Shown here piece after piece: positions 3,224 through 46,252 of a stretch of DNA of 64,000 nt; the stretch's first letter is position 1; each line of letters begins with the position of its first letter. Under the pieces are notes generated by a model. It did not search any database, was not told the origin of the DNA, and worked only from the letters and a program-made list of their open reading frames with translations. Position numbers and translations under genes: made by a program. This DNA is from an uncultured virus (IMG/VR IMGVR_UViG_3300045115_000228) (Duplodnaviria > Heunggongvirae > Uroviricota > Caudoviricetes), in IMG/VR virus record IMGVR_UViG_3300045115_000228; one strand, given 5' to 3'.

Positions 3224-3249
3224 ATTCGCGTCCCATCCTCCGTTCCCCT
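3224..3249 (-). promoter_or_regulatory. AGG-N19-GAAT promoter motif (tandem with 3154..3179)
   Basis: Exact spacing; overlaps the upstream stop codon. Confidence 0.55.
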
Positions 3250-5415: not shown

Positions 5416-5416
5416 A

Positions 5417-7004: not shown

Positions 7005-7006
7005 GG

Positions 7007-16857: not shown

Positions 16858-17522
16858 AGTCCCCGTCGAGGTACTTGTCAAGGGACGTCTTCTTCCCGTT
16901 CAGGTTGTTCGTGACGATCCCGTCCATGTGCCTCACCGTCCTCACCTTGTCCCCCCTCATCCCGGACCCCACCTGGGCCCTGCGCGACGCGTTCTCGTCG
17001 GAGGCGACCTTGGACGTCCTGGCGGCCGCGACCCTCGCGGCAAGCCAAGCCATGGCCATCTCCCGGTTCTGGTGCTGCGACCTCTCGGACTCGCACCTCA
17101 CCGTGACGCCCGTCGGCCTGTGGGTGACGCGGATGGCGGACAGCGTCTTGTTCCTGTGCTGGCCGCCTGGTCCCGACCCCCTGTATGGCTCGACGTCCAC
17201 GTCGGAAGGGTTCAGCCCGTCTGACGACCGGCACGGCGGGAGCACGGCCACCGTGATGGTCGAGGTGTGGCGCCTTCCGTGGCGCTCGTTGGGAGGCACG
17301 CGCTGGTGTCGATGGCCGCCCGGCTCGTTGGCGAACGCCTTGCCCGCCCCCTCGCCCTCGGCCACGAACGCTATGAACCCTGGCTGGACCTCAAGGAGGG
17401 AGCACTCAAAGACGGTTCCTGGACGCCATCTTCGAGTAGATCCTGTACTGCTCGTTGACGAGCAGCTTCGCGTCGTCGCCGCCCTCGGCGGCCCTCATCT
17501 CCACGATCGCCATCTCCTTCAT
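16841..17522 (-). CDS. Class I peptide release factor-like protein (RF1/PrfH-like, no domain 1) made by a +1 frameshift
   Basis: ATG 17522 gives MKEMAIVEMRAAEGGDDAKL...RNRL, then CTT TGA (17411..17406). The +1 frame continues ECSLLEVQPG...HRHQRVPPNE...GPGGQH; ~226 aa. Confidence 0.85.
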
Positions 17523-18402: not shown

Positions 18403-20445
18403 TCATCCGTTGGGATCATTGTTCCCTTGGACGTTGCCCATGGCGTTTTCGAGCCAGTCGCCCTTGCGCAGCTCCCTGATGGCGTCGTCCTTCGTGATGC
18501 CCGGGTTCTCGTCCATCATCCTGACGACGGCGTCGAGCGCCCTGCCGACGTCGGGCCCCGGCTTCAGGCCGAGCTCCAGCATGATCTCCCTGCCGTCGAG
18601 GACCGGCTTGACGCCGCGCCCCTTCTGCACCGCCATGTCCTTGGCGACCTCCGCCCCGTCCGACAGGAGCCGGAGGTAGCCCTCGCGCTCGGAGTCCTCC
18701 ACGGGGCCTCCCTTGGCGACGGCGTCCGCCGCGGCGATGTTGACGACGTCCTCCCAATCGATGCCGAGGGCCGCCATCTGCCGCACGAAGCGCCTGAGCG
18801 CCGACTTGTTGCTGTCGTACCTGTTCAGGTGGTGCGGCCGCATGTGCGACCCGACAAGGGCCTCGACGGGCTTGGAGAGCGGCTCCAGCTTGACGAAGCG
18901 CATGAACTCGCCGGCCACGTCGCGGCTGACGTCCTCGTGCCCGTGGTACGTCATCGTCCCGTCGTCCTTGGCCTGCCTTGAGGCCGAGTCCAGCTTGCCG
19001 GCGTCATGGAGCAGGGCGGCCATCATCACGAGGAAGACCTTGTCCTTGTCCCTGCCGCGGTACTTCCTTGCCACCCCCCTCGCCAGCGCCTTCGTGTGCT
19101 CGTCCCACGTGAGGTTGTGGTGCCGGCTCTTCTGGTCCATCGTCGGCGGCGACAGCCTCTCCGACCGCCCCGACTCGGCCGTGGCGTCGCGGAGCAGGTC
19201 CTCGAAGATGCCCGTGTCGATCAGCATCTCGACGGCCACCTCCGGGAAGCCCGACGACAGCATGTCCACGAGCTCGATGCCCTTCCTTTCGCGCGACACC
19301 TTGCGCCTGAGCTTCTCGCGCAGGTCGGGGGACCCAAGGGCGATCATCGCGTCGGGGGCCACCTTCCAGCCGTAGCGGGCGGCGAAGCGGATCGTCCTGA
19401 GCATCCGAAGGGGATCGTCGCTGAAAGTCTTCGCCGGGTCGAGCGGTGTGCGCACGACCCTGTCCTGGATGTCCCTGACGCCCCTCCCCGTGAAGTCCTC
19501 GACCTCGTCCCTGTTGACGTTGTAGAACAGGCAGTTGATGGTCAGGTCTCGCCTGTGGGCGTCCTCCTCGGCCGTGGCCCTGGTGGTGACGGGGATGCGG
19601 GAGTCTCCGCGGTAGACGTCGCGCCTCGCCTGCGCGACGTCGATCTCCAGCCTCGCGCCGGACGACAGGTCCATGTAGATCCTGGCGGTCTCGACGTGCT
19701 TGGACTGCTCCGGGTTGGAGCGGATGACATGGGGGTCGGACAGCCCGAGCTCCTCCGCGACGAGCCTGGCGAACGCGGGCCCGCCCATGTCGTCGACCAT
19801 CAGGTCGATGTCCTTGGGCTGGGCGCCCATCAGCTTGTCCCTGACCCACCCCCCGGCGGCCCTGACGGTCGTCCCCGGCGTCCGCCTCTCGACGACCCTC
19901 ATGAGGATGGCGAAGAGTTCTTGCTCGTCGGCCGTCAGCCTCCCAGACCTGGCGAACCCGGTAGGGTCGACCGTCGCCGAGGCCGTCTTGTCGATGCCCA
20001 GCCTGTCGGTGGGCTGCCACCTGTCCAGCATCCTCTGGATGACATCCTCGGGCACCCCGTGCGCGTTCCTGCGCGCCAACTCCTTGACGTCGAACTTCCA
20101 CGCGGTCTGCGGCTCGGCATATTTGACGGAGTAACCGAACTTGCTGGCAAGCCGGACATACACATTCGTTTCAGAAGCCGTAATGTTCGTATTGTCAACG
20201 ACCACGGGGGTTATCCCCATTTGCATTGCCTTCTCCACTCGCTCCTGATTGTAAAGGTGTGCCTCCCCAAGCAACTCGCGTCGGAAAAGATATTCGCCAT
20301 CGACCATGAAGAAGTCGTCCGCCGACAGGACGATCCCGCCGTCTTCCTCGGCGATCGCCCTGGCGCTCGTGCTCTTCCCGCTGCCGGGCAGGCCGCGCAT
20401 GATGACGAGCCGCTTGTCGTAACTCTGTGCCTTGACGATCCTCAT
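18403..20445 (-). CDS. P-loop (AAA_33/N4BP2-like) kinase fused to a CCA-adding/poly(A) polymerase and an HD domain
   Basis: Start MRIVKAQ after GGAGG; MRGLPGSGKS, VVDNTN; AGGWVRD, KDIDL, RRDLTIN, DDPLRMLR; LLHDAGK. Confidence 0.9.
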   Translation of the reverse strand: MRIVKAQSYDKRLVIMRGLPGSGKSTSARAIAEEDGGIVLSADDFFMVDGEYLFRRELLGEAHLYNQERVEKAMQMGITPVVVDNTNITASETNVYVRLASKFGYSVKYAEPQTAWKFDVKELARRNAHGVPEDVIQRMLDRWQPTDRLGIDKTASATVDPTGFARSGRLTADEQELFAILMRVVERRTPGTTVRAAGGWVRDKLMGAQPKDIDLMVDDMGGPAFARLVAEELGLSDPHVIRSNPEQSKHVETARIYMDLSSGARLEIDVAQARRDVYRGDSRIPVTTRATAEEDAHRRDLTINCLFYNVNRDEVEDFTGRGVRDIQDRVVRTPLDPAKTFSDDPLRMLRTIRFAARYGWKVAPDAMIALGSPDLREKLRRKVSRERKGIELVDMLSSGFPEVAVEMLIDTGIFEDLLRDATAESGRSERLSPPTMDQKSRHHNLTWDEHTKALARGVARKYRGRDKDKVFLVMMAALLHDAGKLDSASRQAKDDGTMTYHGHEDVSRDVAGEFMRFVKLEPLSKPVEALVGSHMRPHHLNRYDSNKSALRRFVRQMAALGIDWEDVVNIAAADAVAKGGPVEDSEREGYLRLLSDGAEVAKDMAVQKGRGVKPVLDGREIMLELGLKPGPDVGRALDAVVRMMDENPGITKDDAIRELRKGDWLENAMGNVQGNNDPNG

Positions 20446-20837
20446 TTCTCCTCCACGCTCCACCCTTCCCCCCTCGCGACTTCCATCAATGCTACCGGAA
20501 AACCCCTTGGCACGTCAAGGACATCCCCTTGGGCCCCAGACTCCGCGAGGATTCGCCTCACCAAGTCGAGCTGCGACCACCTGAAGTACAGGTAGGCGTC
20601 GCTGTGCCTGGAGTCCCTGTCGTCGGTGTCGGCGACGTAATGGCGAACCCCGAACTCCTCGGCCAAGGCCTTGAGCTGCTGGTGCGCTTCCCTCGTCTCC
20701 TCGTACCTCTCGATGTGGGCGGCGTCGTCCGGTCCTTGCGTGAAGAAATCCTTGTGGCCGGCGCCGAAGTCGTCGGCGCAGACGCACTCAAGGCTGACGT
20801 CCCAGTCGTCCACTTGTGCCACCCTGACGATCCTCAT
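20442..20837 (-). CDS. Hypothetical protein, N-terminus MRIVRVAQ
   Basis: 131 aa with ATGA overlaps on both sides. Confidence 0.75.
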   Translation of the reverse strand: MRIVRVAQVDDWDVSLECVCADDFGAGHKDFFTQGPDDAAHIERYEETREAHQQLKALAEEFGVRHYVADTDDRDSRHSDAYLYFRWSQLDLVRRILAESGAQGDVLDVPRGFPVALMEVARGEGWSVEEK

Positions 20838-23800
20838 TGGCTCCCCCCGAACAGCATCTTGACGGCCGCCACGACCCCCGGATGCGTGCCCCTTGGCAGG
20901 CGGGACAGGGGGAACCACCCGTGCTCGTCGCTCTCCCAGTTCAGCCGGATGTTCCTCTCGATGGTCGCCTTCTGGTCTGCCGTCACGTCCATCCTGAACG
21001 TCGTGTACTTGAAGTTGCCGAAGGGTATCGTGACGCTCCCGGCGGGAGTCCCATCGGGGTTGTGTCCCATCTCCTCTCCGACCTCGGAGTGGGCCGAGTC
21101 GCGCAGAGTGTCCTCATCGAACTCCACCCCCTCGCGTTCCTCGTCCTCGACGTGGCCCTCGGTCCCCTTGACGGCGCCGCCCGGTATCCCCCACATCCCG
21201 GGGTCGTACGTCTCGGACGACCTCTTGAGCAGGAGGATCGTGCCGTCGTCGGGGCAATGGTACATAACCCCCGACCCGGCAGTGCCCCAGGTCGTGGCGG
21301 TCATCTTGACCACGCCGCCAGACTCGGCGACTTTGTCGCCGACGAACCTGCCGGGGAACTGGTACATGAGGATCATCCTTGGGTCCGAGATCACCATCCC
21401 ATGAATCATCTGGTAGACGTCGTCCGAGTCGAACCCTCCGGCGACGAACTCGTCGAACTGCTTCTTCAGGGCAGGGACGGATGACATGACGACATTGAGC
21501 CTGTCCTTGTTGATCGTCCCGACGTCGAACGTCTCTTGCCCGGCCGGTTCCGCGGCGTCGGCGCAATCCTCCTTCGCCTCGCCCTTCGACCTTGCGTACT
21601 CCTCCTTGATCTCGCGCTCGGCGACGTCCGGGCCCGCCTGCTTGGCCCTCCTCAACCACGCCTTGTGGTCGCGCCAGTAATACCTGAACATAGGCAACGA
21701 CCATCCCTCAAGCTGAGCCTCAAGCACGCGGCTGAACCCCGATCGCAGGGGGTTCAGCTTGTGGTCGCCTTCGAGGGACACCGTCACGGGATGGGCCCCC
21801 GGCTTGACGAACGTGAAGTGCGTGCCGCTCGACCTCGCCTCCCTAAACCCAAGGAAGGTGCACAGGAAACTGCGGACATCCCCGGCCATCATTTCCGGCA
21901 CTCCGCAGTTCGACACCGCCGTCACGATCGGGCCATGGCGAAACGCCCTGATGCCGAACGGCTTCGACCTGTCCGGCTTGGACGCCCTGTACCTCCTGAC
22001 GAAGTCGGCGAACCACCTGCCCTTGGACTTGGCCGCAAGGAACGCCTCGTACTCCTCCCTCGGCACCCCGGCGAACGAGTACTCCCGGAAGTCGCGCATC
22101 TTGAACTCAAGCATCCCGAGGAGCTCGAAGTAGGCCACCTCGCGGATCGCCGACGACTCGACGGGCGTCCACTTGTCGCGGTATTCCGCGTCCAGCTCGG
22201 CGATCAGCTCGCCGTCGATGTCCCTCTCGGCGGACGCCGTCCGCCTGCCGCCGAGGTTGAGGATGTCGGAGGGGGCGACGCGAGGCAGGACATACTGGTA
22301 GCGCCCGGACTCGATGTCGGCGTCGTCCGGGTCGGGGGAGAGGTCGGCGAGCCGTGTCCTGATCTCAAGGACGACCGGTTCCCCTCCGTGCTTGGACACG
22401 GCGTTGTCGGCGTACCCGTCCATCGCGACCCCGCCCGACCGCAGGGACACGTAGACGCCCGCCGGAGCCTGCCCGAAGCGGTTGACGTCCTTCTTGCTGG
22501 GCAGAAGCCCCTCGCGCCTGATGCGGGGCAGGAGCCGCGTGCTCGTGGCGTGGAATGCCACGACGTCCTCGCCACCGATGACCCTCGCCGCGTCGTCGTC
22601 GACCATCCAGTTCACCTCGATCAGGCCGTCGTCCCGGATCCTCAGGCTGTACTTCTCGTCGGCGAAGTCCCGGAAGTACTCCAGGTCGAGCTTGCCGCGC
22701 TCCTCGCCCAAGTCCCTCATCCACTCGCCGAAGTTCGCGTCGTCCCTCTGCATCATCCGCATGGCGACGGGGCGCCACGCCTCCGCCTGCGCCAGCCTCT
22801 TGTGCCTGCGCTTGCGGTTCTTCTTCACGACGTCGCGGTCGAACTTCGTCCCGGCGCACTCCGGGAAGAGCTGGGTGTCGAGGTGCCCGTGCTGCGGGGC
22901 GTCGTCCACGCCGGTGTCGCGGTTCAGCCTCCCGGTCACGGCGATCCCGGAGGACGCCGACCCGAACGTCTCCTTGCTCCTGTGGCCGCCGCGCAGCCTG
23001 TCGTGGGCCACCTGGGGGTCGCGCGGCACGTAGATGAACTCGTGCGGGTCGCCCAGCGAGACGAGCTCGTCGGGGTAGACCTCGATCGCGAACACCCTCC
23101 ACTTCCGCCCGTGGAACTGCATCTCGCCGTGCCTCCTGGCGTACGGGAGGGACTCCGTGACATACGACCCCGGCATGATGCCCCCGATGGTGGCCGCGCG
23201 GAAGACCCTGATCTTCCTGCCGGCCTTGATGGCGTCCTTGAGGTGCAGGGAACCCGGCACCCCGTCGAGGGACCTGTCCCACCCCTTGCCGAGGACATCC
23301 TCGAACCTCCACTGGTCGTCGTACGAGGCGAGGTCGGCGAGCGTCTCGTGTCCCGACGCCCCGGCGCCCTCGCCCATCTCCGCGCGCCACTCGAACGACC
23401 TCCTCGGCGATATGCTGCCGCTCGCCGGCACGTCGATGTCCATGGACGCCAATTCCTCCGGCGTCGCTGGGAGCGTGGCGGCCATCTTCGGCACGCCGCC
23501 GGCGGGCCTGATCTGGGACGGGTCGAACGCGACGTAGACGTCGGAGACCATGGCCCCGTCGTGGAAGCCCCGGATGACGACCCCGTCGTGCCCAGCGTCC
23601 TTGGCGATCGGCACGAGCATAGGCGGAGACCACCTGTTCTCGCCCATCTCCTTGGACGTGACCTCAAGGGGGTTCTCGATCCTGAGGTGGTATCCCCTGA
23701 CGAACATGTCCTCCCCGCGAGCGTTGGCGGCGTTGTAGCGCCTGACGTGGGCCTTGCCGGCGCGCTCCGCGAGCTCCGGCGTCCCGAACGCGCCGCCGTT

Positions 23801-26800
23801 GAGCACGATGTTGCCGTCGTCGTCCGACGCGGCGTAGAACCACTCCTCGCCGTCCCCGTAGGACGACACGAGGTCCGGGTGGAGGCTGGCGGGGACGTCC
23901 CTGAAGTCGGCGAAGAAGGCGGCGTTGTCCGGTGCGGACGTGAAGAAGAATCCGCCGTAGTCGGGCCTGTCGACGAGACCCCTCGTGATGCCCGTCCCGA
24001 TGAGGTCCTTGCTGAACCTCTCGACCATCGGCTCCTTAGACCCGTGGTAGACGACGAGCGGCTGCCCGTCCTCTCCGACGACCTTGCTGTTGCCGAACCA
24101 CGACGCGGGCGGCTTGGCGGAGGCGAGCCTCGGCTGCGTCCCCCACATCGCGATGTCCGTCAGGGTCTTCGATCCTCCCTCCACGAACATGGCGGCGAGG
24201 TCTCCCCTCTGGTGGACGACGTTGAGCATCTGGTCGACGACGAGGAGTTGGGCCTCGGCCGTCTCGGCGGCCGCGAGCTGGAACAGGAGCCTCTCAAGCT
24301 TTGGCAGGCCGTAGTCGCTGACATACCATCTGCCATCCTTCGTCTCCATGCCATCGACGAGCCTCTCCCACTGCTTGTCCGTGAACTCGTGCCCGTGGTC
24401 CTTGATGGCCTCCCTCATGTCGACCATCGCGTGCCCGCTGATCTCGTTGGATATGCGGAGCCTGACGACGCCGTCGAACATCGCGTCCGCTATCTCGCGC
24501 ATCCCGGCCTCGTCCCTGACGAAGCCCATCTTGGCGTAGTCCGTCCATATCTTCTTCAGCCTGGCGGCCGGCACCAGCGGCCAGTTGACGAGCCACTTCC
24601 TCTTCCGATCCCTGTGGGCCCTGAACGACCCGACGATCTCGTCGATGATGGAGTCGTACCTTTCCAAGTGCCTTTCGGCGACGCGATCATGCGTCTCGTC
24701 GTCCGACGCGGCGATCTTGAGCGGGCGGGACGCCAGCCTTGCGAAGGACTCGTCGTCGGGGGCCTTGGCCACGAGGCCGTTCCTCTCGGCGTCCCTGGCC
24801 TTCGCCCTCGCGAACCCCAGCGCCGCCGCGTTGATCCTGTCGTCCATCTCGGAGTACCCCGTCATCCTGTCGGCGGCCAAGTCGTAGATCCACGTCCATG
24901 GCGTGTCGGAGGTCTCCATCTGCGAGAGGCCGAAGATCTCCTCGTGCGTGACGCCGCGCTTCGCGTTCCACCCCAGCGCTGCCCTCCTGGTGATGTAGAC
25001 GGCTTCCGACTTCAGGCTGTGGGCCATCGTGTAGCCGAAGATGGCGCCCTTGGCGTACTCCGGAGGCTTGCGTTCCGACAGGACTATCGGGAATCTCTCC
25101 GACGCCTGCTTCGCGACGTTGTCGGCGAGGGGGCCCACGATGCGTCCTCTTCTTGTCGAAAGCATGATGGCGGACGGGGGGATCGCCATCCCGTTGTAGG
25201 CCGGCTCGTAGGCTATCACCGACCCGTACTGGTGCTGCTCGATGACCTCTGGGAAGTCCTTGCGCCTGACGGCGACCCATGCGTCGCGCCCGAAGTCGCA
25301 CGGGCGGTCGGAGAACGACCCGGCGTCCATCCCCTCGGCGGCGATGGACGGCAAGTCCCTGGCCCAGCAGTTGTGGTAGACGTAGCGGTCATCCTTGGGG
25401 GCGTGCCGCGGAAATCCCGCCGGGAGCACTCTGGCCGTCACCTGGCCCTTGCCCCACTCCGACCTGGGCTTGCGACCGACGCTGGCGTCCATCGCCACCA
25501 GCTTCGCCTTGCTGGGGTCGAAGATGACGTAGTTCGTGAACCCCCACTCTTGCGAGCCAGAGGGGCCCCTGAAGTTGGCGTACTCGATCTCTGGCAGTAT
25601 CCTGATGCCGTCGTACCCCATCCCCTCGACGGTCTTCCTGAACGCGACCGGGTCGTCTCTGCCGTACATGAACCTTTGCAGGTACCTCGCCGCGTGGATG
25701 TCGTACAGCCTCCCGACGTTGACCTCGACGGTCATCACGTTGTGGCCGAAATACTTCGCGACGTCAGGCGACTCCGTCAGCCAGAAGCCTGGGACTTGGC
25801 TGCTTTCTTCGCCAGGCGTACCCTGCCCGCTAAGCTCCAGCGACGGGTCGAACCAGTCGAACATCTGACTGTCCGTCCCGTGGTAGGCGACGATCGTCCC
25901 CCTGGGGACGAACCCGCCTTCGGAATGTTTCTTGGACATCCTCGCCGCGATCGCCGCCACGTCGTCCTCCCCATGGTCGAGCCTCACGTGCTCGCCCCAC
26001 TCATGGAACTGCGTCCCAGGCTCGCGTGACGGCTCCTCCCCGACGTTGTCGAACTGCGCTTGGTAGTCTTCGAGGATCCCCCTTGCCTCTTCGGTGAAGA
26101 AGTCGTCCGTCGATGCGATGCGTATGTCGAAGTCAATGAGGGACGCCTGCGTCGCAAGACCCCACAGCTTCCGGTTCCTTCGTATGAACCTCCTCGCCTG
26201 CTCAAGGGCCTCGCCCGCGATCTCCTGCGACGCCTCAAGGTCCTCGACGCTGGAGTCCTCGATCCTCCACCCTCCTGGCTTGAGCGGCTCGGCGTCCGAC
26301 CCCAGCATGTTGGCGGCCACCGTCGCCTCGTCGCGCAGGCCGCGGGCGTCGGCGTAGCGGCCGTCCGGGGCTCGGCAGGCGGCGTGGGCGAGGATGCCAT
26401 ACTCCTCCCCTTCCGCCTCGTCCCTGACGAGCTCGTTGAAGACCACGATCGGCCATCCCGTGGCCTCATGGAGGGCGATGGCGAACTCCGGGCAGTACCC
26501 CCTGCAGAAGGATCCCGCGTCCAGCCTGGCACCCTTGGGGGAGCCGAGGCTTCCCGCGGTCGCCTCCAGGCCGTCCGCCGAGACGTCCTCCTGCCTGAAC
26601 CTCATGGACTGCGTCCGGCCCTTCCTGTCGAGGAAGAACCCCCAGACGTCGCCCTCCGGCAGGTCGACGGCCCATCCGCGCAGCCAGTACCTCCCGCCCA
26701 TGGTGCCCGTCAGGCGCAGCCTGGCGCGGCGAGGCTCCGTCCCCTTCATCCTCCCTGAATCGACCTTCGCCTTCACCCTCTCGATGGGCGGGAAGTCACC

Positions 26801-29800
26801 GTACGTGCGCTCGACGGACTGGGCGATCGTCGTCTTGGCGGCGAACTCCCTCTCCTTCTTGGCGAGGGCGTCGGCGACGTCCTGATCCGTGGAGTCGTCC
26901 CGGACGTCGATCGCGAAGGTGGATCCGTGCGACGGGGACCCGGCGCGCACGTCGTTGAAATACATCAGGCGGATGTCGTCATGGCTCTGCTCGCCTATGT
27001 AGGTGATCCCGAGCCTTGTCGCCACGCCGTGCGGATCGATGGCCGCGGTGACCGGCGCCGCCCCCGCCCTCCCGGGCGACATCCATGTCCTCCCGACGAG
27101 GACGAGGTCGCCCGCGGACTCCATCTCGCCCGTGCCCTGGTTGAAGCGGATGTCCCTCGGGTCCACCTTGAGGCGCATGACGATCCCTGGATCGTCCTTC
27201 GACCCCCTCATCTTGGCGTAGCCGGACGCCCCCTCGCTCCCGAACGCCGACCTGTCCCTGGCATGGCTGAAGTATGCGGGGCCGATGATGCGCCTGTCCT
27301 TGAGGATCCTCTCCCTGCTGCTGGCAGTCGTCCCATGCCAGACGTAGACGTCGTACTCGTACTTGTCGAGCGACAGGCGATAGCCCTCCGCATGGAGCTC
27401 CTTGAACAACGACATGGCGGCGTCCGCCTTCTCCCCCATTTCCCTGACATACTCGCCTGCCCTCCTGCGATCCCGCTCTCTCCACAGGGCGGCGTATTCC
27501 TCGACGAGCCTTGCCTGCTCCTCGTCGCCCGCCTTCCTCGCCCTCTCGACCTCGATGTGGAAGCCGCTGGGGTGGAGGGAGTCCATCCTGACGTTCCCGC
27601 GGACGGACAGGTCCTCGGCGTAGTCCTTGACGGTCATTGCGGCGAGCTCCGACATCCTATCGGTCTTGACCGATGCCGTCCTGATGTTGGCGACGTCTTC
27701 GGGGGTCAGTCTTGATTCCGCGACCTCGACATCCGCAACCTCCACATGCGCCCCTTCCCTCTTTTTCCACGAGTAGCCACCGCCGGTCTCGTAGACGGAC
27801 GGATCGATGTCGACGACGAAAGCGCACTTGAGGTCGTGGACGAGCAGGTAGGCGTGGTCGTCTCCGTCCTGTCCGCCGTCCGCAACGTCATAGCCGTGAT
27901 CGACGAGCACGCCCGCCATGGCTTGGGCGACGGCGTCGCACACGCCGCCGCTCCCGTACGTGGGGTCAACCCCATCCTCGTCCTGCTCCCATCCGTCAAT
28001 GACCTCGTTGGCGGCGGCGGCAAGTCCCGGGCGGAGAGCAAGCAGGGCGTCGCGCTCGACGGCCTTCGTGACAGGGTTTGTCACGTCGATGTCGAATGTG
28101 AACTCCTGCTGTTCTGGCGTCGGTTGGTTTCCGGCGTGCTTTATGATCACGTCGAACTTGCCAGACGCCACGCGCTCCCTTCCGACGATCCTGATCTGGT
28201 CGGGACGGAACGCCACGTAGTGCTTCTTCGTCCCATAGTCCTTGACGATCCCGTCGTACCCGAGGATTTTCGTGACCGCGTCGTTGAACGCCTTCGTGTG
28301 GCCGCGGTAGAAGTCGTTGGCTATCGCCCAGAGGGCCCTGATCGTCGCGTCCCCTCGCGAAAGCTGGGCGTACGCCTTCACGGCCTCGCCGATGACCTTC
28401 CCCCTGCCCTCGAAGCTCACGTCCCCCCAGTTCGCCAGGGCGTCCTCGAACTCCGGCGACGCCATGAGCAGCCTACGGATCTTGCCGGGCGGGATTGGGC
28501 CCGTGGCGTCGGCGTCCAGCGGGTTCCTGATGTCGAGCTCGACTTCGTGGATGGTCGGGGCGTCCTCCCCGCCAGGCTTCGGCTCGTCCTCCCTCCGCCT
28601 GGTGGTGTATCCGCGAGCCTCGTTCCTGTCGGTCGTGAAGTAGAACCCGCTGCCGATCTCGTCGTTGCCGACGCCCGTGAACTCGTACGAGAACTCCTTG
28701 ATGTCCGTCCCGCTGCCGTGGTAGGCGCGTATCGGGGTTTGGGTTGACGCTGTCTTGTTGGCCATCGCCCGGCTTGCGAGCCCTTCTGCGAGGCTTTCGC
28801 CGGCGCGCTTGGACGCCGCTTCCTCCACGTCCAGGCGGTCGAAGCCATGCTCCCGCATCAGCTCCGAGGCGACCTCCCCGTCAACGGACAGGACGTCTAC
28901 CTCTCGCGCCCCGTCGCGGATGGCCCTGGCGAGCCTGTGGTGCCCGTTCTGCAGCACGTACCCCTTGGGGTAGCGGAAGGCGAACAGGGGCTTGCCGTCG
29001 TCCCTCGTGGGCTTGGGGTCGTCGCGCCCGAAGGCCGCCGTCTCCGTCGGCTCAAGGGACGACGTCGGGACGCGCTCCCGCCTCGGATCGAGCCTGTCCG
29101 CCAGGTCGTCGGCCGACGGCGGGGCCCGCCGCCTGACCTCCTTGAACGGCGTGATCTGCTCCGGGCCTATCCTGCCTGCGACGCGCGCCCCGTGGCCGTA
29201 GACGAGGCTCTCGGCGAGGGAGTCGCCGAGGCCCTGGAACCGCTCGCCGCCCCAGTACCTCTTGTTCCTGAGCTGGTCCAGGTCCGGGCGGAGCCTCCTG
29301 ACGGTCAGGTCGACGGCGTAGACCACGATGTCCTTCCCGGGGTACGCCATCCTCGCGAAGTCCTCGGCCGACGTCGGGAACACGCTGAGGTAGACGTAGC
29401 CGCTCCCGCTCTGGTAGGAGTGGCGCCTCCTGCCGCTGGTCGGGAGCAGCCCCTTCTCCATGACGGGGTGCTCGGCGGACGTTCCGTGGTACATGCGGAC
29501 GAACCGGTTCGGGTCGGACCGGAGCCAGGCGGCGACCCTGCGGACGGCCTCCGGCGTCTCCGCGGAGTAGAAGAGGCCGTCTATCTCGGGGTCGCCCGTG
29601 AACCTGGCCTGCGCCGTCCTGACGACGACCGGGAACCCCTCGTCCCGCTCGGACTCCGCCTGCGCGACGTCCGCCTCGGCGAACGTGTCTCTGATGTACC
29701 TCCGCAGCGTGACGCCGTCGCCGTCGAGGGAGGACGGGTATGGCTCGCCCGGCCCCATGCGGAACTGCCGGCGCCACACGCGCACGGCGGCCTCCGCGAT

Positions 29801-32800
29801 GGCCTCCGAGCCATGGCTGCGGTCGTCGATGAGCCAGTCGTAGGCCTTCTCCAGCGTGTCGATGCCGCTCTCGATCATCCGTTCGGCGTCCGACTCGTGG
29901 GACTCCGCGCCGGTCGCGGCCTCGCCAGAGACCGTCTTGACAGTGGCATCCAACGACGCCGTGATGTCCGGGCTTTCGGGATCGAACCCGCCAGAGTTCT
30001 CGACGGCGGACTTGATCTGGCGCGGATCGAAGACGACGTACACGTCGGTCTCGACCTCCGCCCCGTCGAGGGCGTCCATGATGTTCCTGAAGATCACGCC
30101 GTCGTGGCCGCCCTTGCGGGCGTCCCCGATCTGCGCGGCCATCGCCGCCATGTCGCTGTCGCCGCCCTCGTAGTCGTGGACGGCCGGGTTGACGATCCTC
30201 AGGTACACGTCGAACACGTGCGCCTTCCCCCGCGCGGCGTCGTTCCTCGCCCTGTCCTTCGCCATGTACTCTTCGAGCTTGCGCTCGGCCTTGGCGACCT
30301 CCGCCTCCACCTCCGCGTCGCCGGCGGCGCGGGCCTCCGCCTCGGTCCCGTAGTAGTCCGGGCTGCCGTACGTGTACGGGTCTCCGAAGTGGCTGTAGGC
30401 GTGGATGACGTACTCGAAGCCCTTCTCGCCGCCCTCCTCGTACGGGATGACCTCCACCGTGGACGCCCTGGCGCGCTCGACAGCCTCCTCGTGCTGGGGA
30501 AGACGGGACTCAAGCGTCATCCGCATGCGGGCGGCGTTGTCCATCGCCCTGGAGTGGCTCTCGGGGTCGGCGTAGGACGCGGCGACGCCCCTGTCGCTCA
30601 CGAAGAACATCCCCCCGGCGGCGAACTCGGACATGTTCCTGCCCGCCTGCGAGAAGTCGAACACCTTGAACTTGCCGCCCAGCGTGCCGTGGTGGACGAC
30701 GAGCGGCCTGCCGTCCTCGTCCACGACCTTGCTGCCGCGGAACCATGCGTCGAACGCCTTCGAGCGCGACGCCTTCGCCGCGAGCCGGATGCCGTCCCCG
30801 TCGCGGGGGGCGATTGACGACGCCCTCCTGGCGGCAGGATAGAGCCTGCGTCCCTCCTCCTGGGCGATCACGAGGACATTGTTGCCGGGCAGAACGAACT
30901 GTATGTCGAACCCATGGAACTGTCCGTCCAAGGACTCCTTGACGTCGGTGTTCAGTTCAAGCACCCTGGGGCCGGCGGCCGACTCCGGGACCGACACGAC
31001 GATGTCCCAGTCGCTGTCGGGTCTTTCCGTGCCCCTGGCCCTGCTGCCATGGAACCATATCTCCGTGGCCTCGGGGACGACCCTTCTGATTTCCCTGACG
31101 ACCCTCGCCCCCATGGGGCACGAGGACGCCATCCTTCTGCCGGGGAGGCTGAACTTCAGCTCGCCGGCGAGCCTGCTGGGGATGACACCCTGCGGCGCGG
31201 AAAGCCTCGAAGGGTCGTGCTCGTCCCAGTACCACACGCCGCACGCCTGGGGAATCTCCTGCTCGACGTAGGCCTCGAAGATGGCGTCCTGGTCGCCGTC
31301 GGAGAAGCCCACGATCCTCTTCGTCTCCGTGCCCTCGTCGTAGCCCTCGGGGTCGTCCTCCATCCATCCGCTGACCTCGCCGTCCTCGTCGTACTGCGCG
31401 ACCAGCGTGCGCTCCTTGGCCTCCCACCTCCCCTGGGCCTTCGCCCACTCGAAAACCATAGGGACGTCCTCGACGGCCTTCGACCCGAACGTGCCGTAGA
31501 AGTCCAGCATCTTCCTGCCAGGGGGAAGGGTGACCCAGACGGGGTTCGTCCCGCCGAGCTTGGCTATCTCGATCCACGAGTCGACGTACTCCGGCAGCGT
31601 GACGGCGACTCCCCTGTAGAGGGACCCGCCGACCGTCCCCTCCCTTGACGCGTCCCACCCGTTCGCGGCCAGAGACTCGGCGTCGGAGGACATGTGGACG
31701 AAGCGGCGGTTGGGGATGAACTTCGGGCCGACCGCGGCATGGCTCCTGATGCGCGCCCCCTTCGGTCTGTCGATGAGGGTCGGCTCGGACGCGTCCCTCG
31801 GGCTTCCGTCCTCCATCGGCTCCTTGCGCCACGCGTCGGCGGCATCAAGGTTCGTGAAGTATTGTACCCCCCTGCCGTCCGCCCATAGAACCTCCCAGCA
31901 CTTGCCGTCTGGGGCGATGCCGGTGTCCTTGGAAAGGACCTCCTTCCACTCCCGCCTCTTGAGCAGTTTCTTCGGGTACCCGAGCACGGCGGGGATCGTC
32001 CTGGCGCGCGCGAGCCGCGCCCCCTCAAGCCGATGGTTCCCGTCCTGCAGGCTCCACCCGAATTCCTCGCTGTACACGAAGCAAACCGGGGGGACGTCAT
32101 CCCCACGCTCGAACACCCTCCTCCACTTGCCGACGCCCCTCCTGTAGTACCCCGTCCTGTTGTCCTCGGGCGACATGACGTAGTCGAACGGATCGGACCA
32201 CACGTAGTCTTGCGGGTCGAACGGGAGCCTGAAGGCCTCGTTGCCGTCGTGATGGAACCTCGATGTCCATGGCTCGCGAGTCGTCCACCTGTCGGGAGGG
32301 GCGAGCGCCTCAAAGGCCTCCCAGCAGCCCGCGAACTCCCTGCGGCCAGACGCCCCTGCCGAGACGATGATGGGGACGGATTCCTCCATCCTGACGTCCG
32401 GCGACGACGAGTCGAACCTCTTGGACGGCGGGACGATTTCGCCGTCGCCCCCCTTGACGACGGCGTCGGCCAGCTTGATGTTGTTCGCGTCGAACACGAC
32501 GAGCGACACGTTCTCCCCCTCGTGCCTGTGCCAGTCGGGGACGACGACGGCGTCGTAGCCGTCGGCGTGCGCCGTCGCCTGCAGGTCGGTCCACCGCTCC
32601 ATCGACCAGTCGCCCTCGTAGTCGTACAGCGTCCCGTGGAGGACGGCGTCGAACGGGGTCAGTTCCTCCCCGCTCTGCCGGTCGACCCACTCGTCGTAGG
32701 TCTTCCCCCACTCGTTCGTCCATCGCGCCGCCTCGACGTCCCCCTCGTCCGTCAGGTCGAGGACCTTCGGGGCCCTGACGTAGAACCTCCGCGCCTTCCC

Positions 32801-33151
32801 CCTGGCGTAGGAGTCGGCGATCCCCCTGTTCTGGGTGGTGAAGATGCCGTAGTTGGCCCTGTCCTTCCTGTGGTACTCGAAGATGCCGTCGGCGTCCCTG
32901 TCGCCCCTGAACACCTCGTGGACGTATCCCGCCGCCTTGGCGGCCTCGTCGACCAGCCTCTGGGCGGCCGCCATGTCCCCGGCCTCGACGGCCGCCATGT
33001 ACTCGTCGTCCACTCCCGACGCGGCCTTGATCGTGATGTCGAAGGATGCGGGGACGCCGGCGCCGTCCTGGTTGTCGAAGACGACGCCTTCGACCTCGAA
33101 CGGCTTGTCCGGGTCGCGTTCCTTGGGATGGGATGTCTCTCTCGTCGGCAT
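20834..33151 (-). CDS. Giant polyvalent protein (~4105 aa): ~11 ADP-ribosyltransferase-like domains, 2 ParB-like, nucleotidyltransferase, 2 papain-like, KTSC, HicA-like, Nudix
   Basis: Repeated WFxxSKVVxxDGxPLVVxHG[ST]...G[FM][FY]F...GxDG...VFDPxQI units; DGNHR and NGHHR; FHGSRARG..DSDWD; VESSAIREVAY..SKG; GF..RSSGTH; WGIPGG..EVGEEMG. Likely start MPTRE at 33151. Confidence 0.9.
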   Translation of the reverse strand: MPTRETSHPKERDPDKPFEVEGVVFDNQDGAGVPASFDITIKAASGVDDEYMAAVEAGDMAAAQRLVDEAAKAAGYVHEVFRGDRDADGIFEYHRKDRANYGIFTTQNRGIADSYARGKARRFYVRAPKVLDLTDEGDVEAARWTNEWGKTYDEWVDRQSGEELTPFDAVLHGTLYDYEGDWSMERWTDLQATAHADGYDAVVVPDWHRHEGENVSLVVFDANNIKLADAVVKGGDGEIVPPSKRFDSSSPDVRMEESVPIIVSAGASGRREFAGCWEAFEALAPPDRWTTREPWTSRFHHDGNEAFRLPFDPQDYVWSDPFDYVMSPEDNRTGYYRRGVGKWRRVFERGDDVPPVCFVYSEEFGWSLQDGNHRLEGARLARARTIPAVLGYPKKLLKRREWKEVLSKDTGIAPDGKCWEVLWADGRGVQYFTNLDAADAWRKEPMEDGSPRDASEPTLIDRPKGARIRSHAAVGPKFIPNRRFVHMSSDAESLAANGWDASREGTVGGSLYRGVAVTLPEYVDSWIEIAKLGGTNPVWVTLPPGRKMLDFYGTFGSKAVEDVPMVFEWAKAQGRWEAKERTLVAQYDEDGEVSGWMEDDPEGYDEGTETKRIVGFSDGDQDAIFEAYVEQEIPQACGVWYWDEHDPSRLSAPQGVIPSRLAGELKFSLPGRRMASSCPMGARVVREIRRVVPEATEIWFHGSRARGTERPDSDWDIVVSVPESAAGPRVLELNTDVKESLDGQFHGFDIQFVLPGNNVLVIAQEEGRRLYPAARRASSIAPRDGDGIRLAAKASRSKAFDAWFRGSKVVDEDGRPLVVHHGTLGGKFKVFDFSQAGRNMSEFAAGGMFFVSDRGVAASYADPESHSRAMDNAARMRMTLESRLPQHEEAVERARASTVEVIPYEEGGEKGFEYVIHAYSHFGDPYTYGSPDYYGTEAEARAAGDAEVEAEVAKAERKLEEYMAKDRARNDAARGKAHVFDVYLRIVNPAVHDYEGGDSDMAAMAAQIGDARKGGHDGVIFRNIMDALDGAEVETDVYVVFDPRQIKSAVENSGGFDPESPDITASLDATVKTVSGEAATGAESHESDAERMIESGIDTLEKAYDWLIDDRSHGSEAIAEAAVRVWRRQFRMGPGEPYPSSLDGDGVTLRRYIRDTFAEADVAQAESERDEGFPVVVRTAQARFTGDPEIDGLFYSAETPEAVRRVAAWLRSDPNRFVRMYHGTSAEHPVMEKGLLPTSGRRRHSYQSGSGYVYLSVFPTSAEDFARMAYPGKDIVVYAVDLTVRRLRPDLDQLRNKRYWGGERFQGLGDSLAESLVYGHGARVAGRIGPEQITPFKEVRRRAPPSADDLADRLDPRRERVPTSSLEPTETAAFGRDDPKPTRDDGKPLFAFRYPKGYVLQNGHHRLARAIRDGAREVDVLSVDGEVASELMREHGFDRLDVEEAASKRAGESLAEGLASRAMANKTASTQTPIRAYHGSGTDIKEFSYEFTGVGNDEIGSGFYFTTDRNEARGYTTRRREDEPKPGGEDAPTIHEVELDIRNPLDADATGPIPPGKIRRLLMASPEFEDALANWGDVSFEGRGKVIGEAVKAYAQLSRGDATIRALWAIANDFYRGHTKAFNDAVTKILGYDGIVKDYGTKKHYVAFRPDQIRIVGRERVASGKFDVIIKHAGNQPTPEQQEFTFDIDVTNPVTKAVERDALLALRPGLAAAANEVIDGWEQDEDGVDPTYGSGGVCDAVAQAMAGVLVDHGYDVADGGQDGDDHAYLLVHDLKCAFVVDIDPSVYETGGGYSWKKREGAHVEVADVEVAESRLTPEDVANIRTASVKTDRMSELAAMTVKDYAEDLSVRGNVRMDSLHPSGFHIEVERARKAGDEEQARLVEEYAALWRERDRRRAGEYVREMGEKADAAMSLFKELHAEGYRLSLDKYEYDVYVWHGTTASSRERILKDRRIIGPAYFSHARDRSAFGSEGASGYAKMRGSKDDPGIVMRLKVDPRDIRFNQGTGEMESAGDLVLVGRTWMSPGRAGAAPVTAAIDPHGVATRLGITYIGEQSHDDIRLMYFNDVRAGSPSHGSTFAIDVRDDSTDQDVADALAKKEREFAAKTTIAQSVERTYGDFPPIERVKAKVDSGRMKGTEPRRARLRLTGTMGGRYWLRGWAVDLPEGDVWGFFLDRKGRTQSMRFRQEDVSADGLEATAGSLGSPKGARLDAGSFCRGYCPEFAIALHEATGWPIVVFNELVRDEAEGEEYGILAHAACRAPDGRYADARGLRDEATVAANMLGSDAEPLKPGGWRIEDSSVEDLEASQEIAGEALEQARRFIRRNRKLWGLATQASLIDFDIRIASTDDFFTEEARGILEDYQAQFDNVGEEPSREPGTQFHEWGEHVRLDHGEDDVAAIAARMSKKHSEGGFVPRGTIVAYHGTDSQMFDWFDPSLELSGQGTPGEESSQVPGFWLTESPDVAKYFGHNVMTVEVNVGRLYDIHAARYLQRFMYGRDDPVAFRKTVEGMGYDGIRILPEIEYANFRGPSGSQEWGFTNYVIFDPSKAKLVAMDASVGRKPRSEWGKGQVTARVLPAGFPRHAPKDDRYVYHNCWARDLPSIAAEGMDAGSFSDRPCDFGRDAWVAVRRKDFPEVIEQHQYGSVIAYEPAYNGMAIPPSAIMLSTRRGRIVGPLADNVAKQASERFPIVLSERKPPEYAKGAIFGYTMAHSLKSEAVYITRRAALGWNAKRGVTHEEIFGLSQMETSDTPWTWIYDLAADRMTGYSEMDDRINAAALGFARAKARDAERNGLVAKAPDDESFARLASRPLKIAASDDETHDRVAERHLERYDSIIDEIVGSFRAHRDRKRKWLVNWPLVPAARLKKIWTDYAKMGFVRDEAGMREIADAMFDGVVRLRISNEISGHAMVDMREAIKDHGHEFTDKQWERLVDGMETKDGRWYVSDYGLPKLERLLFQLAAAETAEAQLLVVDQMLNVVHQRGDLAAMFVEGGSKTLTDIAMWGTQPRLASAKPPASWFGNSKVVGEDGQPLVVYHGSKEPMVERFSKDLIGTGITRGLVDRPDYGGFFFTSAPDNAAFFADFRDVPASLHPDLVSSYGDGEEWFYAASDDDGNIVLNGGAFGTPELAERAGKAHVRRYNAANARGEDMFVRGYHLRIENPLEVTSKEMGENRWSPPMLVPIAKDAGHDGVVIRGFHDGAMVSDVYVAFDPSQIRPAGGVPKMAATLPATPEELASMDIDVPASGSISPRRSFEWRAEMGEGAGASGHETLADLASYDDQWRFEDVLGKGWDRSLDGVPGSLHLKDAIKAGRKIRVFRAATIGGIMPGSYVTESLPYARRHGEMQFHGRKWRVFAIEVYPDELVSLGDPHEFIYVPRDPQVAHDRLRGGHRSKETFGSASSGIAVTGRLNRDTGVDDAPQHGHLDTQLFPECAGTKFDRDVVKKNRKRRHKRLAQAEAWRPVAMRMMQRDDANFGEWMRDLGEERGKLDLEYFRDFADEKYSLRIRDDGLIEVNWMVDDDAARVIGGEDVVAFHATSTRLLPRIRREGLLPSKKDVNRFGQAPAGVYVSLRSGGVAMDGYADNAVSKHGGEPVVLEIRTRLADLSPDPDDADIESGRYQYVLPRVAPSDILNLGGRRTASAERDIDGELIAELDAEYRDKWTPVESSAIREVAYFELLGMLEFKMRDFREYSFAGVPREEYEAFLAAKSKGRWFADFVRRYRASKPDRSKPFGIRAFRHGPIVTAVSNCGVPEMMAGDVRSFLCTFLGFREARSSGTHFTFVKPGAHPVTVSLEGDHKLNPLRSGFSRVLEAQLEGWSLPMFRYYWRDHKAWLRRAKQAGPDVAEREIKEEYARSKGEAKEDCADAAEPAGQETFDVGTINKDRLNVVMSSVPALKKQFDEFVAGGFDSDDVYQMIHGMVISDPRMILMYQFPGRFVGDKVAESGGVVKMTATTWGTAGSGVMYHCPDDGTILLLKRSSETYDPGMWGIPGGAVKGTEGHVEDEEREGVEFDEDTLRDSAHSEVGEEMGHNPDGTPAGSVTIPFGNFKYTTFRMDVTADQKATIERNIRLNWESDEHGWFPLSRLPRGTHPGVVAAVKMLFGGSQ

Positions 33152-33160
33152 CCCCATATT

Positions 33161-33186
33161 GTTCGATGGGGCATGCCCCAAAACCT
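33161..33186 (-). promoter_or_regulatory. AGG-N19-GAAC promoter motif of the polyprotein gene
   Basis: Exact spacing; ATG 33151 is 9 nt downstream. Confidence 0.6.
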
Positions 33187-33811
33187 AGACGGAAGGCGGC
33201 TCCGGAGCCCCGGAGACCATGATCCGGATCTCGGCGATCCGCTTGGCGAGGTCGAGCCCCATGCTCCTCGTCTCCGCCTCGACCTTCGCCTCCTCCGCAA
33301 GGACGTCTCCGATGACCTCGCCGAACAGCAGGCAGACCTCCTCAAGGACCGGCACGACGGACGGGTCGAAGGCGTCCTCCCTGCGGTCGTTGACCTGCAG
33401 CAGGCCGACGACGGAGTCGCCGTCCCTGATCGGGACGAGGCAGACGGTCTCGTATCCCTCCCCGTTGCACCTGTCCCTCGTGTCCGACCCCCTCTGCTCC
33501 TTCGTCGTGCCGGCGAGCAGCCCGGTCGTGCCGAAGGAGCAGAAGCTGCCGCCCGAGGTGAAGAAGGGCTTGCCAGAATCCGTCCGGCCGCGGATCACGT
33601 TGCCGCACATGCGGTCCAGGGCCACGCTGCCGGTGCGGTCCCTGATGGCGCAGCCGTTGCCGTCCCTCCTGCACAGCGACAGCTCGGCGCTCACGAAAGA
33701 CTCCGTGAAGCCGATAGTCGTGTAGTACGGGTAGTCGTCGCCCTCGTGCAGGCGGACGCCGACGGCGTCCGTGCACAGCGAGTCCTTCACGGCGAGCACG
33801 AACTTGCGCAC
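33185..33811 (-). CDS. Stand-alone GAF-domain protein
   Basis: AVGVRL..GDDYPYY..GF...MCGNVIRGRTD..PFFT..GSF...RCNGEGYE..LVPIR..GLLQVND. The frame stays open upstream to ~33900; true start uncertain. Confidence 0.75.
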   Translation of the reverse strand: MRKFVLAVKDSLCTDAVGVRLHEGDDYPYYTTIGFTESFVSAELSLCRRDGNGCAIRDRTGSVALDRMCGNVIRGRTDSGKPFFTSGGSFCSFGTTGLLAGTTKEQRGSDTRDRCNGEGYETVCLVPIRDGDSVVGLLQVNDRREDAFDPSVVPVLEEVCLLFGEVIGDVLAEEAKVEAETRSMGLDLAKRIAEIRIMVSGAPEPPSV

Positions 33812-33918
33812 GAGGTCGCGCTTCGTGCAGTCCTGCCCGTCCCCGTACAGGACGCCGGATACGCGCGCCAGGAACGATGCCCTGTCGATGGTCTTTATGC
33901 CATGCTCCTTCCGTCATT

Positions 33919-33993: not shown

Positions 33994-34017
33994 CTGGACA
34001 GGCAATGAGGGGGAATC

Positions 34018-35097
34018 ATGAGCGACAGGATAGCCAAGATGACGAAGACCAAGAACGCCGACAGCCGGGCGGAGGTGTTGCGGGCGATGGGGAGTTTCGA
34101 TGGCGGGCAGTCGGACGTGAAGCTCGTCGTGCCTGGCCACAGGACGAAGAGGCACATCACGCTCGAAGAGTACAAGGCGATGCTCAAGTCCGGGATGACC
34201 CCACAGCAGGTCATCGCCACGACGTCGAAGCACCTCATCTTCTTCTACAACGCCATCCTCGACGGAAGAATCACGCTCGACAGGAACGAGTTCGTCAGGA
34301 TGTACGAGTCTGGGGTCTCGCTGGACGAGATCGCCGCCAAGCACGGAATCCCCAGGGGACACGTGACCTTCCTGCGGGAGTTCTATGGGATCAAGCGCAA
34401 GGGGGCCACGTTCCAAAGGCGCCTGCACAGTGAAGTGCCGCTGTCACCACAGGCAAAAAGTGTCATCGTCGGATCCATCCTCGGCGACGGCCACATCCAT
34501 CCGAACGGATACTGGTCAGAGAAGCATTGCATCGCTCAGGCCGACTACCTTCGGTGGAAGGCTTCGTTCGTGCCCGACATCACGACCGAGAAGAGCTTCG
34601 TCGAGTACGAGTCGTACGACAAGAGGTACGGCAAGTCTAACAAGGGTCTGTCATTCAGGACTCGGGCGCACTCGTGGCTACAGGAGATGGGTCAGTTGTT
34701 CTATCGGGGAGAGGGGCGAACGAGGACGAAGGTCGTTCCTGACAACATTTCCGACCTCCTTGACGAGACGGCGTTGGCCGTTTGGTTCATGGATGACGGC
34801 AATACGGATTGGGGATACAGAGGAGGGGTGAAAAAACATTCTGGAACAGAACCAAGATGTCTGATACATACGGAAGGGTTTGACGAGATTGGAGTAGAGT
34901 CGCTGTGTTCGGTGTTGCGCCGCAAGTTTGGCTTGTCTTGCAAGCCTTGTTTGAAGGATGCCAAGGTTCCAGACAAATGGGTTGTCCGACTTACGTCAAT
35001 GTCGTCTCGAAAGCTGACAACAATGCTTATGGAAAAGTTCTCTTTTATGACAACAATGCAGTACAAAATCAACGAATCTGCTTTTGTAAATCGTTGA
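34018..35097 (+). CDS. Free-standing LAGLIDADG homing endonuclease with an N-terminal HTH
   Basis: IVGSILGDGHI and LAVWFMDDG; lower GC in the 3' half. Confidence 0.9.
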   Translation: MSDRIAKMTKTKNADSRAEVLRAMGSFDGGQSDVKLVVPGHRTKRHITLEEYKAMLKSGMTPQQVIATTSKHLIFFYNAILDGRITLDRNEFVRMYESGVSLDEIAAKHGIPRGHVTFLREFYGIKRKGATFQRRLHSEVPLSPQAKSVIVGSILGDGHIHPNGYWSEKHCIAQADYLRWKASFVPDITTEKSFVEYESYDKRYGKSNKGLSFRTRAHSWLQEMGQLFYRGEGRTRTKVVPDNISDLLDETALAVWFMDDGNTDWGYRGGVKKHSGTEPRCLIHTEGFDEIGVESLCSVLRRKFGLSCKPCLKDAKVPDKWVVRLTSMSSRKLTTMLMEKFSFMTTMQYKINESAFVNR

Positions 35098-46134: not shown

Positions 46135-46218
46135 CAGCGGGAAGACCCTGCCCATTCAGGGGTAGGGATGGGAGCGAGCCACTTGCCAACCGGGTTGCGA
46201 AAAAAGATGAAATCAGGC

Positions 46219-46244
46219 AGGAAGCGTGGCATGTTCTGATGAAT
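46219..46244 (+). promoter_or_regulatory. AGG-N19-GAAT promoter motif before tnpB
   Basis: Exact spacing; ATG 46253 is 8 nt downstream. Confidence 0.55.
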
Positions 46245-46252
46245 CAATGGAC

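Follow-up and report, generated by a model that had tools for sequence, protein, structure and literature searches.

A 64,000-nucleotide stretch of DNA from an uncultured virus of the Caudoviricetes (IMG/VR record IMGVR_UViG_3300045115_000228), here called the window, encodes about 25 modules in one polypeptide. The open reading frame (ORF) concerned lies on the minus strand at 20834..33181 and encodes a giant protein (P0001) of 4115 amino acids (aa), in which we could name eight domains of the ADP-ribosyltransferase (ART) type (five ART-PolyVal domains and three that belong to two families outside Pfam), a pair each of ParB/Srx-like and Cys-His-Asp domains, and a minimal nucleotidyltransferase. 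Our preferred reading, to which we give a probability of roughly 0.6, is that the giant protein is a polyvalent effector and that the tailed phage encoding it is a relative of Bacillus phage G. The class is known; this new and large member of it brings some domain families that have not been catalogued and a junction motif that is suggestive.

The gene itself is real. Read from a TTG start at 33181 to its end at 20834, stop codon included, the frame runs for 4115 codons without interruption (aa = (33181-coordinate)/3+1), close to the length of about 4100 aa given in a preliminary description made from the sequence alone; the public (JGI) gene call starts at Met9 (33157) and yields 4107 aa. The window has a GC content of 66% and long open frames on both strands, among them an antisense ORF of 1497 codons opposite the giant gene (21536..26029 (+)). 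GC content at the third and second codon positions separates the two frames: the minus frame, with values of 0.91 and 0.46 like those of other real genes of the window, is coding, and the antisense ORF is a high-GC shadow. Nor is the ORF an assembly chimera, the possibility that the preliminary description had named against itself, because a nearly identical protein (0-1 differences in 4107 residues; 99.98-100% identity) is encoded on two contigs, 125,023 and 142,314 bp long, that were assembled separately; fragments that are identical or 99.7% identical also occur in two further sources. Megablast of the giant gene against GenBank phages found no related phage, and scans of IMG/VR with P0001 and its relatives P0012 and P0010 returned one locus having only aa 1711-1850 in common and otherwise nothing. 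The gene directly upstream (33188-33913 (-)) encodes a Cys-rich protein with a weak GAF match (E 3.5e-4), and its stop codon abuts the first start codon of the giant ORF, which suggests translational coupling.

Polyvalent proteins of phages and conjugative elements were defined by Iyer et al. 2017 (PMC5512222), who describe ARTs as their commonest modifying domains, with an H-Y-D configuration (His in strand 1, Tyr in strand 2, Asp in strand 5) and with as many as 12 copies, the number in one Pseudomonas prophage protein. Compared as a whole with the Pfam family ART-PolyVal (PF18760, cut-off 31.2 bits), the giant protein scores 186.6 bits over six stretches, which correspond to five domains; when it is scanned as 31 overlapping 260-aa segments, these fall at aa 90-239, 821-1066 (split by an insert), 1482-1665, 2430-2560 and 3037-3227, and the three strongest copies reach 47.5, 53.9 and 43.1 bits on their own. 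An iterated profile built from seven giant proteins recovers exactly these five copies (E 1.7e-19 to 9.3e-47, copy 4 in two pieces at 2.7e-7 and 1.2e-6) and nothing beyond them in the giant protein, even at E 10 with filters off, while hhalign places all five at 99.3-100%. Copy 1 (32465..32914, aa 90-239) has a profile E value of 1.7e-19 and, like copy 4 (25499..25894, aa 2430-2561), stands at 99.3% in hhalign; copies 2 (29984..30736, aa 816-1066, interrupted by about 100 inserted aa), 3 (28187..28738, aa 1482-1665, the best Pfam copy at 53.9 bits) and 5 (23495..24091, aa 3031-3229) are found by Pfam, profile and hhalign alike. The preliminary description had placed these five correctly to within about 30 aa. 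Single-sequence hhalign between units is uninformative, as copies 1 and 4 miss each other. A helical leader (..DEYMAAVEAGDMAAAQRLVDEAAKAAGY) stands ahead of some ART-PolyVal copies here (32915-33043 (-), aa 47-89) and in the relatives P0010, P0012 and P0159, and a tail of the form QIKSA..D.G.VIPLSKRF...DIRF...PVI.KAS often lies behind them.

In an alignment of 78 hits, the strand-1 His is present in four of the five copies; copy 1 has Arg, as do 4 of the 58 ART-PolyVal copies having that column. An Asp of the GYDG type occurs in all five (as GYDA in copy 1). The Asp of a terminal FDP motif was considered as the catalytic residue and rejected, being D in only 17 of 53 copies, with Arg at this position in copy 3 and its orthologues. 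Because the FDP Asp is not conserved, we infer that the GYDG Asp probably represents the strand-5 Asp of the H-Y-D configuration (PMC5512222).

The ARTs are accompanied by other domains typical of the class, for which Pol-beta nucleotidyltransferases and DdrB-like ParB domains have been listed (PMC5512222). Two ParB/Srx-like domains, at 31862..32227 (aa 319-440, LQDGNHRLEGA) and 28772..29059 (aa 1375-1470, LQNGHHRLARA), are homologous to each other (hhalign 98%), and a five-sequence profile of them finds ParB 7bnk_A in the PDB at E 2e-7, with 27 of 29 rows of ParB/Srx type; Pfam ParB_N (PF02195) is matched by three of the five members, the window's first copy alone matching nothing. A minimal, MntA-like Pol-beta-type nucleotidyltransferase with a GS...DxD signature (30932..31096, aa 696-750) exceeds the Pfam cut-off for NTP_transf_2 (30.9 bits against 21) and matches NF047752 at E 1.5e-7. 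Both GxHR units and the nucleotidyltransferase had been recognized in the preliminary description, whose assignment to phage polyvalent proteins with ART-PolyVal domains is likewise borne out. Like those proteins, this one is a giant chain of unrelated enzymes of phage origin, with several ART-PolyVal domains, a nucleotidyltransferase and ParB-like domains; unlike them, it contains Cys-His-Asp domains, a KptA-lobe-like ART family, a KTSC domain and a C-terminal Nudix domain, and no zincin was detected in it. In a term search of the main text of PMC5512222, KTSC, HicA and transglutaminase did not turn up, and Nudix did so once, in another context; papain-like enzymes are not among the four peptidase superfamilies that it describes for the class.

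The structural genes of the window show it to be phage DNA, and the phage, which is uncultivated, is related to the giant Bacillus phage G. With the head protein of phage G, the major head protein of the window (58770-59711 (-)) shares 54% identity; it also matches phrog_2522 at E 2.8e-72 and, more distantly, proteins of other large phages. A head-tail adaptor (4705-5445) and a tail tube protein (1909-2865) are encoded on the same strand. The giant gene sits between the head and tail genes, again on this strand. For the class, packaging, injection and possible autoproteolysis by zincin peptidases have been proposed (PMC5512222), and the virion-borne model is repeated in PMC9503650 and PMC7824862. 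By analogy, synthesis of the giant protein would coincide with that of the virion proteins, the head would carry it, and it would enter the host together with the DNA; early in infection, its NAD- and nucleotide-using enzymes might modify several host proteins or nucleic acids and perhaps signalling nucleotides as well. Such a role would resemble that of T4 Alt, a virion-packaged, injected phage ART for which action at the start of infection has been proposed, but T4 Alt is a single-domain protein of the R-S-E Alt/VIP2 clade, whereas H-aromatic-D is the type of the copies found here.

The preliminary description had counted 11 ART units, of which eight are supported: the five ART-PolyVal copies and three others. 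Two of the latter, the fourth and eleventh of the units proposed, are KptA-lobe-like domains at 29117..29500 (aa 1228-1355) and 22247..22570 (aa 3538-3645). Iterated profiles over about 160 retrieved proteins group aa 1228-1303 and 3538-3620 in one 13-segment family outside Pfam; hhalign relates the two domains at 99.8% and the family to ART-PolyVal at 91.4% (E 9e-7) over the His and Tyr strands. Profile comparison is the evidence for the first domain. The second was also put to the fold check suggested in the preliminary description, with an AlphaFold2 model of aa 3232-3650 whose mean confidence (pLDDT) is 54 overall and 61-91 over aa 3538-3645, only model residues 294-419 being used in the fold searches. 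The top 16 rows in Foldseek are Tpt1/KptA (best E 2e-4), followed by ART toxins, DarT and PARPs, and a second, Foldseek-independent search matches T. kodakarensis KptA at Z 9.4 (rmsd 2.7, 85 aa, 26% identity), superposing model residues 306-413 on chain residues 91-180; the Rhs toxin TreX is matched at Z 8.6, and ARTs predominate among the 50 matches listed. The profile of this domain finds KptA among PDB sequences at E 0.0019, with ARTs in 20 of 22 rows. The model thus predicts an ART fold for aa 3538-3645, nearest to the NAD lobe of KptA/Tpt1. Like these enzymes it has the NAD-binding ART lobe, but their N-terminal RNA-binding lobe has no counterpart here, the preceding 50 aa being of low confidence and unmatched; because only the NAD lobe is matched, the domain is predicted to be an ART but not a KptA orthologue.

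The third, originally the sixth unit, is an ART-like domain at 27038..27406 (aa 1926-2048; WHGTT...FSH...VDPRD...GTGE). It belongs to a 7-segment family of its own, related by hhalign to the KptA-lobe-like family at 94.4% (E 8e-8) and to ART-PolyVal at 36%; a profile of aa 1836-2060 had no match among PDB sequences. The remaining three proposals fared less well. The eighth unit (25106..25438, aa 2582-2692; VYHNC...GSFSDRP) is a domain of uncertain kind, with 68% over 25 columns in hhalign. The second (31136..31729, aa 485-682) is a conserved domain, 55-64% identical in two relatives and also found as free-standing proteins of 216-220 aa, but its six sequences reach at most 0.5% against every profile, and a profile of aa 479-690 found nothing in the PDB. 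The tenth, a conserved small domain (22979..23284, aa 3300-3401; model pLDDT 61-74) that recurs in the relatives, had been described as an R-S-E type ART at aa 3323-3385, a reading that hhalign does not support (2% to ART-PolyVal, 12.5% to the KptA-lobe-like family). A language-model search returned one DarT/PARP-labelled cluster, at rank 11, near aa 2575-2720 and ART-PolyVal/AcrIF11 clusters (PF26151 carriers) near aa 483-684; since recognition was below the guide value in both cases, we treat these neighbours as leads only. AcrIF11, an anti-CRISPR ADP-ribosyltransferase of phages and plasmids, offers a precedent for a small phage ART that acts against a defence system; no alignment links it to any unit of the giant protein, and it too is a lead only.

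The two units previously called papain-like retain their Cys-His-Asp triads, and it is the fold for which the evidence is less decisive. Domain 1 (27707..28084, aa 1700-1825; C1748, H1776, D1791, E1798) represents a widespread family without a Pfam model: HMMER with aa 1666-2865 retrieved 854 proteins at E <= 0.001 and 527 at <= 1e-10, and most of the 150 matches listed, of the 854, cover aa 1710-1825. Its triad is nearly invariant (C in 135, H in 136 and D in 134 of 136 segments), as is that of domain 2 (26156..26524, aa 2220-2342; C2230, H2266, D2278), in which each residue is kept in 10 of 10. The model of unit 1 (aa 1690-1840, pLDDT 89.7) places the Cys at the start of a helix, and in this and in the invariant Cys-His-Asp order it is like arylamine N-acetyltransferase, the C3 domain, SseI, LapG and protein-glutaminase. 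The best structural match is arylamine N-acetyltransferase 1e2t_A (Z 6.4, rmsd 3.9, 97 aa), with the Pasteurella toxin C3 domain, SseI, LapG and glutaminases following down to Z 4.2, but all stay below Z 8, and uridylyltransferases, EcoRV and FBPase, whose folds are unrelated, score similarly. Foldseek with this model gave nothing at E <= 0.001 and no decisive match in the PDB or BFVD, and its profile found nothing useful among PDB sequences. The family had no tblastn match in GenBank phage records; one plasmid record matches. The only HExxxH string of the giant protein, HEWGEH (aa 2393), lies in 25850-26131 (-) (aa 2351-2444), in a segment that has no homologues in the local set and, at 80 aa, is too short to be called a metallopeptidase.

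The C-terminal part ends in modules that are shared throughout the family. The KTSC domain (21992..22159, aa 3675-3730) is above its Pfam cut-off and matches PDB entry 4rgi; a PDB sequence search with the whole protein gave nothing else of use. The HicA-like stretch reported beside it (21767..21853, aa 3777-3805) is marginal, at E 0.03 and 14.9 bits for PF07927 against a cut-off of 27. The Nudix domain (20894..21256, aa 3976-4096), also reported before, as a possible eraser, and upheld here as a domain, scores 28.3 bits for PF00293 on the last 215-aa segment (cut-off 21.1) and 21.0 bits on the whole protein. Its box reads G-x5-E, an acidic insert and S-E-V-G-E-E-M-G-H; set against what we take to be the canonical Nudix box, it keeps the Glu-Glu pair and has Ser in place of the box Arg. 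The acidic insert and the Ser are invariant in seven relatives, and no other C-terminal module of the family is as well conserved. A further 'link' module (22718..22951, aa 3411-3488; VTGRLN.DTGVDD...GHLDTQLF..C.GTKFDRDVV), about 55 aa with a Lys/Arg run at its end, is the best conserved short element, present in seven of seven relatives examined and always upstream of KTSC; its model is of low confidence, and it had no match anywhere in the searches made.

Comparison with the relatives indicates how such a protein is put together. Six of them (P0003, P0009-P0013) end in KTSC and Nudix, and a metagenome locus (L013) encodes a seventh, P0159, of at least 3910 aa, with five ART-PolyVal stretches, a C39 peptidase, KTSC and Nudix. 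Blocks held in common are 45-66% identical, and module sets and order differ. In L013 the Cys-His-Asp unit lies ahead of a copy-3-type ART, whereas in the giant protein it lies behind copy 3; in P0003 a C39 peptidase occupies the slot of the second KptA-lobe-like ART, between the same flanks; and a junction with nothing inserted in the giant protein holds zincin-like and GNAT inserts in P0012 and P0003. The zincin-like insert, of HELxER type, occurs in P0012 and P0159, and it joins the C39 peptidase, GNAT and a 2H/Acb1-like domain as the other cassettes of the relatives. A C-terminal core of ART5, the small domain, 'link', KTSC and Nudix is conserved; a word-based search with aa 3228-3975 among shorter proteins gave only 2 matches. 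Between the conserved linkers, the domains are exchangeable cassettes.

These linkers carry a recurrent motif, exemplified by NKTAS, IRTAS, RRTAS, RRMASS, PKMAAT and VKMTAT. A strict pattern, [RKQ].[AT][AS][STN], occurs 8 times in the giant protein against 1.8 in shuffles (maximum 7 in 500), and 13 of 17 occurrences of a looser motif fall within the 560 linker residues of 4115, the linker boundaries having been drawn partly with knowledge of the motif. In P0159, KTA and TAS are found 7 times each (about 0.85 expected) and are among the most over-represented tripeptides, and KTA is found 7 times in P0012 (0.87 expected); the strict pattern is not enriched in P0003, P0009 or P0011. The motif is retained, with varying flanks, where orthologous junctions precede ART copy 3 and Nudix. 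It may be a processing or boundary signal, a suggestion that, like the exchange of cassettes, goes beyond the preliminary description.

Several points weigh against a packaged and injected polyvalent effector. We infer packaging and injection from analogy with the class, and the position of the gene is weak evidence for them, because this 55-kb interval from head to tail genes is also home to many non-structural genes, among them genes for DNA methylases, a glycosyltransferase, a PAS protein, an RF-1-domain protein and a CCA-adding enzyme. ART-PolyVal copies 1 and 4 taken alone score 27.9 and 26.5 bits, below the Pfam cut-off, and the strand-2 aromatic residue is Tyr in one copy only, being Phe in three and Trp in one. 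A PDB sequence search with the whole protein found no solved structure related to ART-PolyVal, and we know of no activity or target for these domains. Pfam scans of the whole protein and its segments found no zincin metallopeptidase; this is the commonest hub domain of the class, but because only about 36% of the class have one (PMC5512222), it is not obligatory for membership.

Three other explanations were considered. The giant protein may be a multi-enzyme protein that is never packaged and acts within the infected cell, for example against NAD- or nucleotide-based defences. The largely non-structural neighbourhood (RNA repair/CCA-adding enzyme, RF-1-like protein, methylases) would fit this, as would our failure to detect a portal, MuF or capsid-targeting domain in the giant protein; yet the gene shares its strand with the head and tail genes and lies between them, the class as a whole has been argued to be virion-borne (PMC5512222, PMC9503650), and a 450-kDa protein would be costly if needed only late, so that we regard this explanation as rather unlikely. 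Less probable still is that most ART copies are inert, serving as NAD or ADP-ribose binders, decoys or bulk internal head protein, with one or two active. The Arg of copy 1 in place of the strand-1 His, the Arg of copy 3 and its orthologues at the FDP position, the single strand-2 Tyr and the low scores of copies 1 and 4 could be read in this way. However, the GYDG Asp is kept in every copy and the His in all but one, the substitutions are common to orthologues at 60-66% identity, as would be the case for working variants, and Phe or Trp is common at the aromatic site among the 59 copies with that column.

The remaining alternative concerns what becomes of the chain. It could be a true polyprotein, cut at K-T-A-S-like junctions by a head maturation protease or by its own Cys-His-Asp domains, so that some two dozen small enzymes are freed and the giant chain is a delivery or stoichiometry device only. 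The recurrence of the motif here and in P0159 and P0012, its concentration in linkers and its conservation at orthologous junctions are consistent with this, as are the several modules that also exist as free-standing proteins, the C39 peptidase or zincin-like insert of the relatives and the autoproteolytic release proposed for the class (PMC5512222). On the other side, the linker map is partly informed by the motif, which is degenerate in the giant protein and not enriched in its strict form in three relatives; no protease gene was found in the window, and the Cys-His-Asp domains are only putative peptidases. No capsid propeptide with the junction motif was seen either, the capsid protein starting without an obvious propeptide, and the virion RNA polymerase of phage N4 is packaged uncut (PMC5512222). 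We therefore hold it doubtful that the protein is cut at all, and we propose only tentatively that the K-T-A-S-like junction, often following a ...IPLSKRF...DIRF...PVI-x-K-A-S tail, marks cuts into some two dozen independent effectors. If it did, the cassettes, freely swapped among related phages, would amount to a modular, self-contained 'effector operon in one ORF' that undergoes processing inside either the capsid or the host.

If the giant protein is a polyvalent effector, as we prefer, it belongs to a group regarded as the first phage proteins that the host encounters. The array of ARTs is not unusually large, as had been supposed, because 12 are known from the Pseudomonas prophage protein and 11-12 occur in the relatives P0018 (11, by Pfam) and P0004 (about 12, by profile); with arrays of that size already known, the picture of the class is unchanged. 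What the protein adds is a test set: five ART-PolyVal variants that differ naturally in the active site, at the His replaced by Arg and elsewhere, two ART families for which Pfam has no model, and a Cys-His-Asp family with more than 500 metagenome representatives. The junction motif and the exchange of cassettes also make proteolytic processing directly testable.

Other genes of the window deserve brief mention. The gene directly downstream of the giant one (18406-20514 (-)) joins an AAA_33 kinase to a CCA-adding/poly(A) polymerase head and an HD domain, and its product looks like a protein of the RNA-repair type; in L013, an AAA_33 domain is encoded in the second gene from the giant ORF (13620-14525), and the adjoining gene (11656-13569) has a weak PARP match (E 1.9e-4). 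A protein with an RF-1/PCRF domain, like a peptide chain release factor, is encoded at 16844-17494 (-) (RF-1 E 1.8e-26, phrog_19918 E 3.5e-37). Between the head-tail adaptor and other structural genes lies a gene for an actin-like protein (5611-7014 (-)) that matches Pfam Volactin (PF25216) at E 1.7e-50 and 172.8 bits (cut-off 35). A LAGLIDADG homing endonuclease (34009-35094 (+)) and a TnpB/IS605 OrfB protein (46211-47422 (+)) are encoded on the opposite strand, where GC content dips to 58% and 61%, respectively, against about 66% around them, and both genes are probably mobile insertions. Upstream of the head genes, 60540-63998 (-) encodes an Ala/Glu-rich protein of at least 1153 aa with a Cys-rich centre and two near-identical segments (...VEDISSGVEGKVKGGTGTIG...), which has no family match and may be a scaffold. 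Finally, in the product of 56375-58630 (-), methyltransferase domains are fused to a zinc finger and a Ros/MucR domain (E 1.3e-11).

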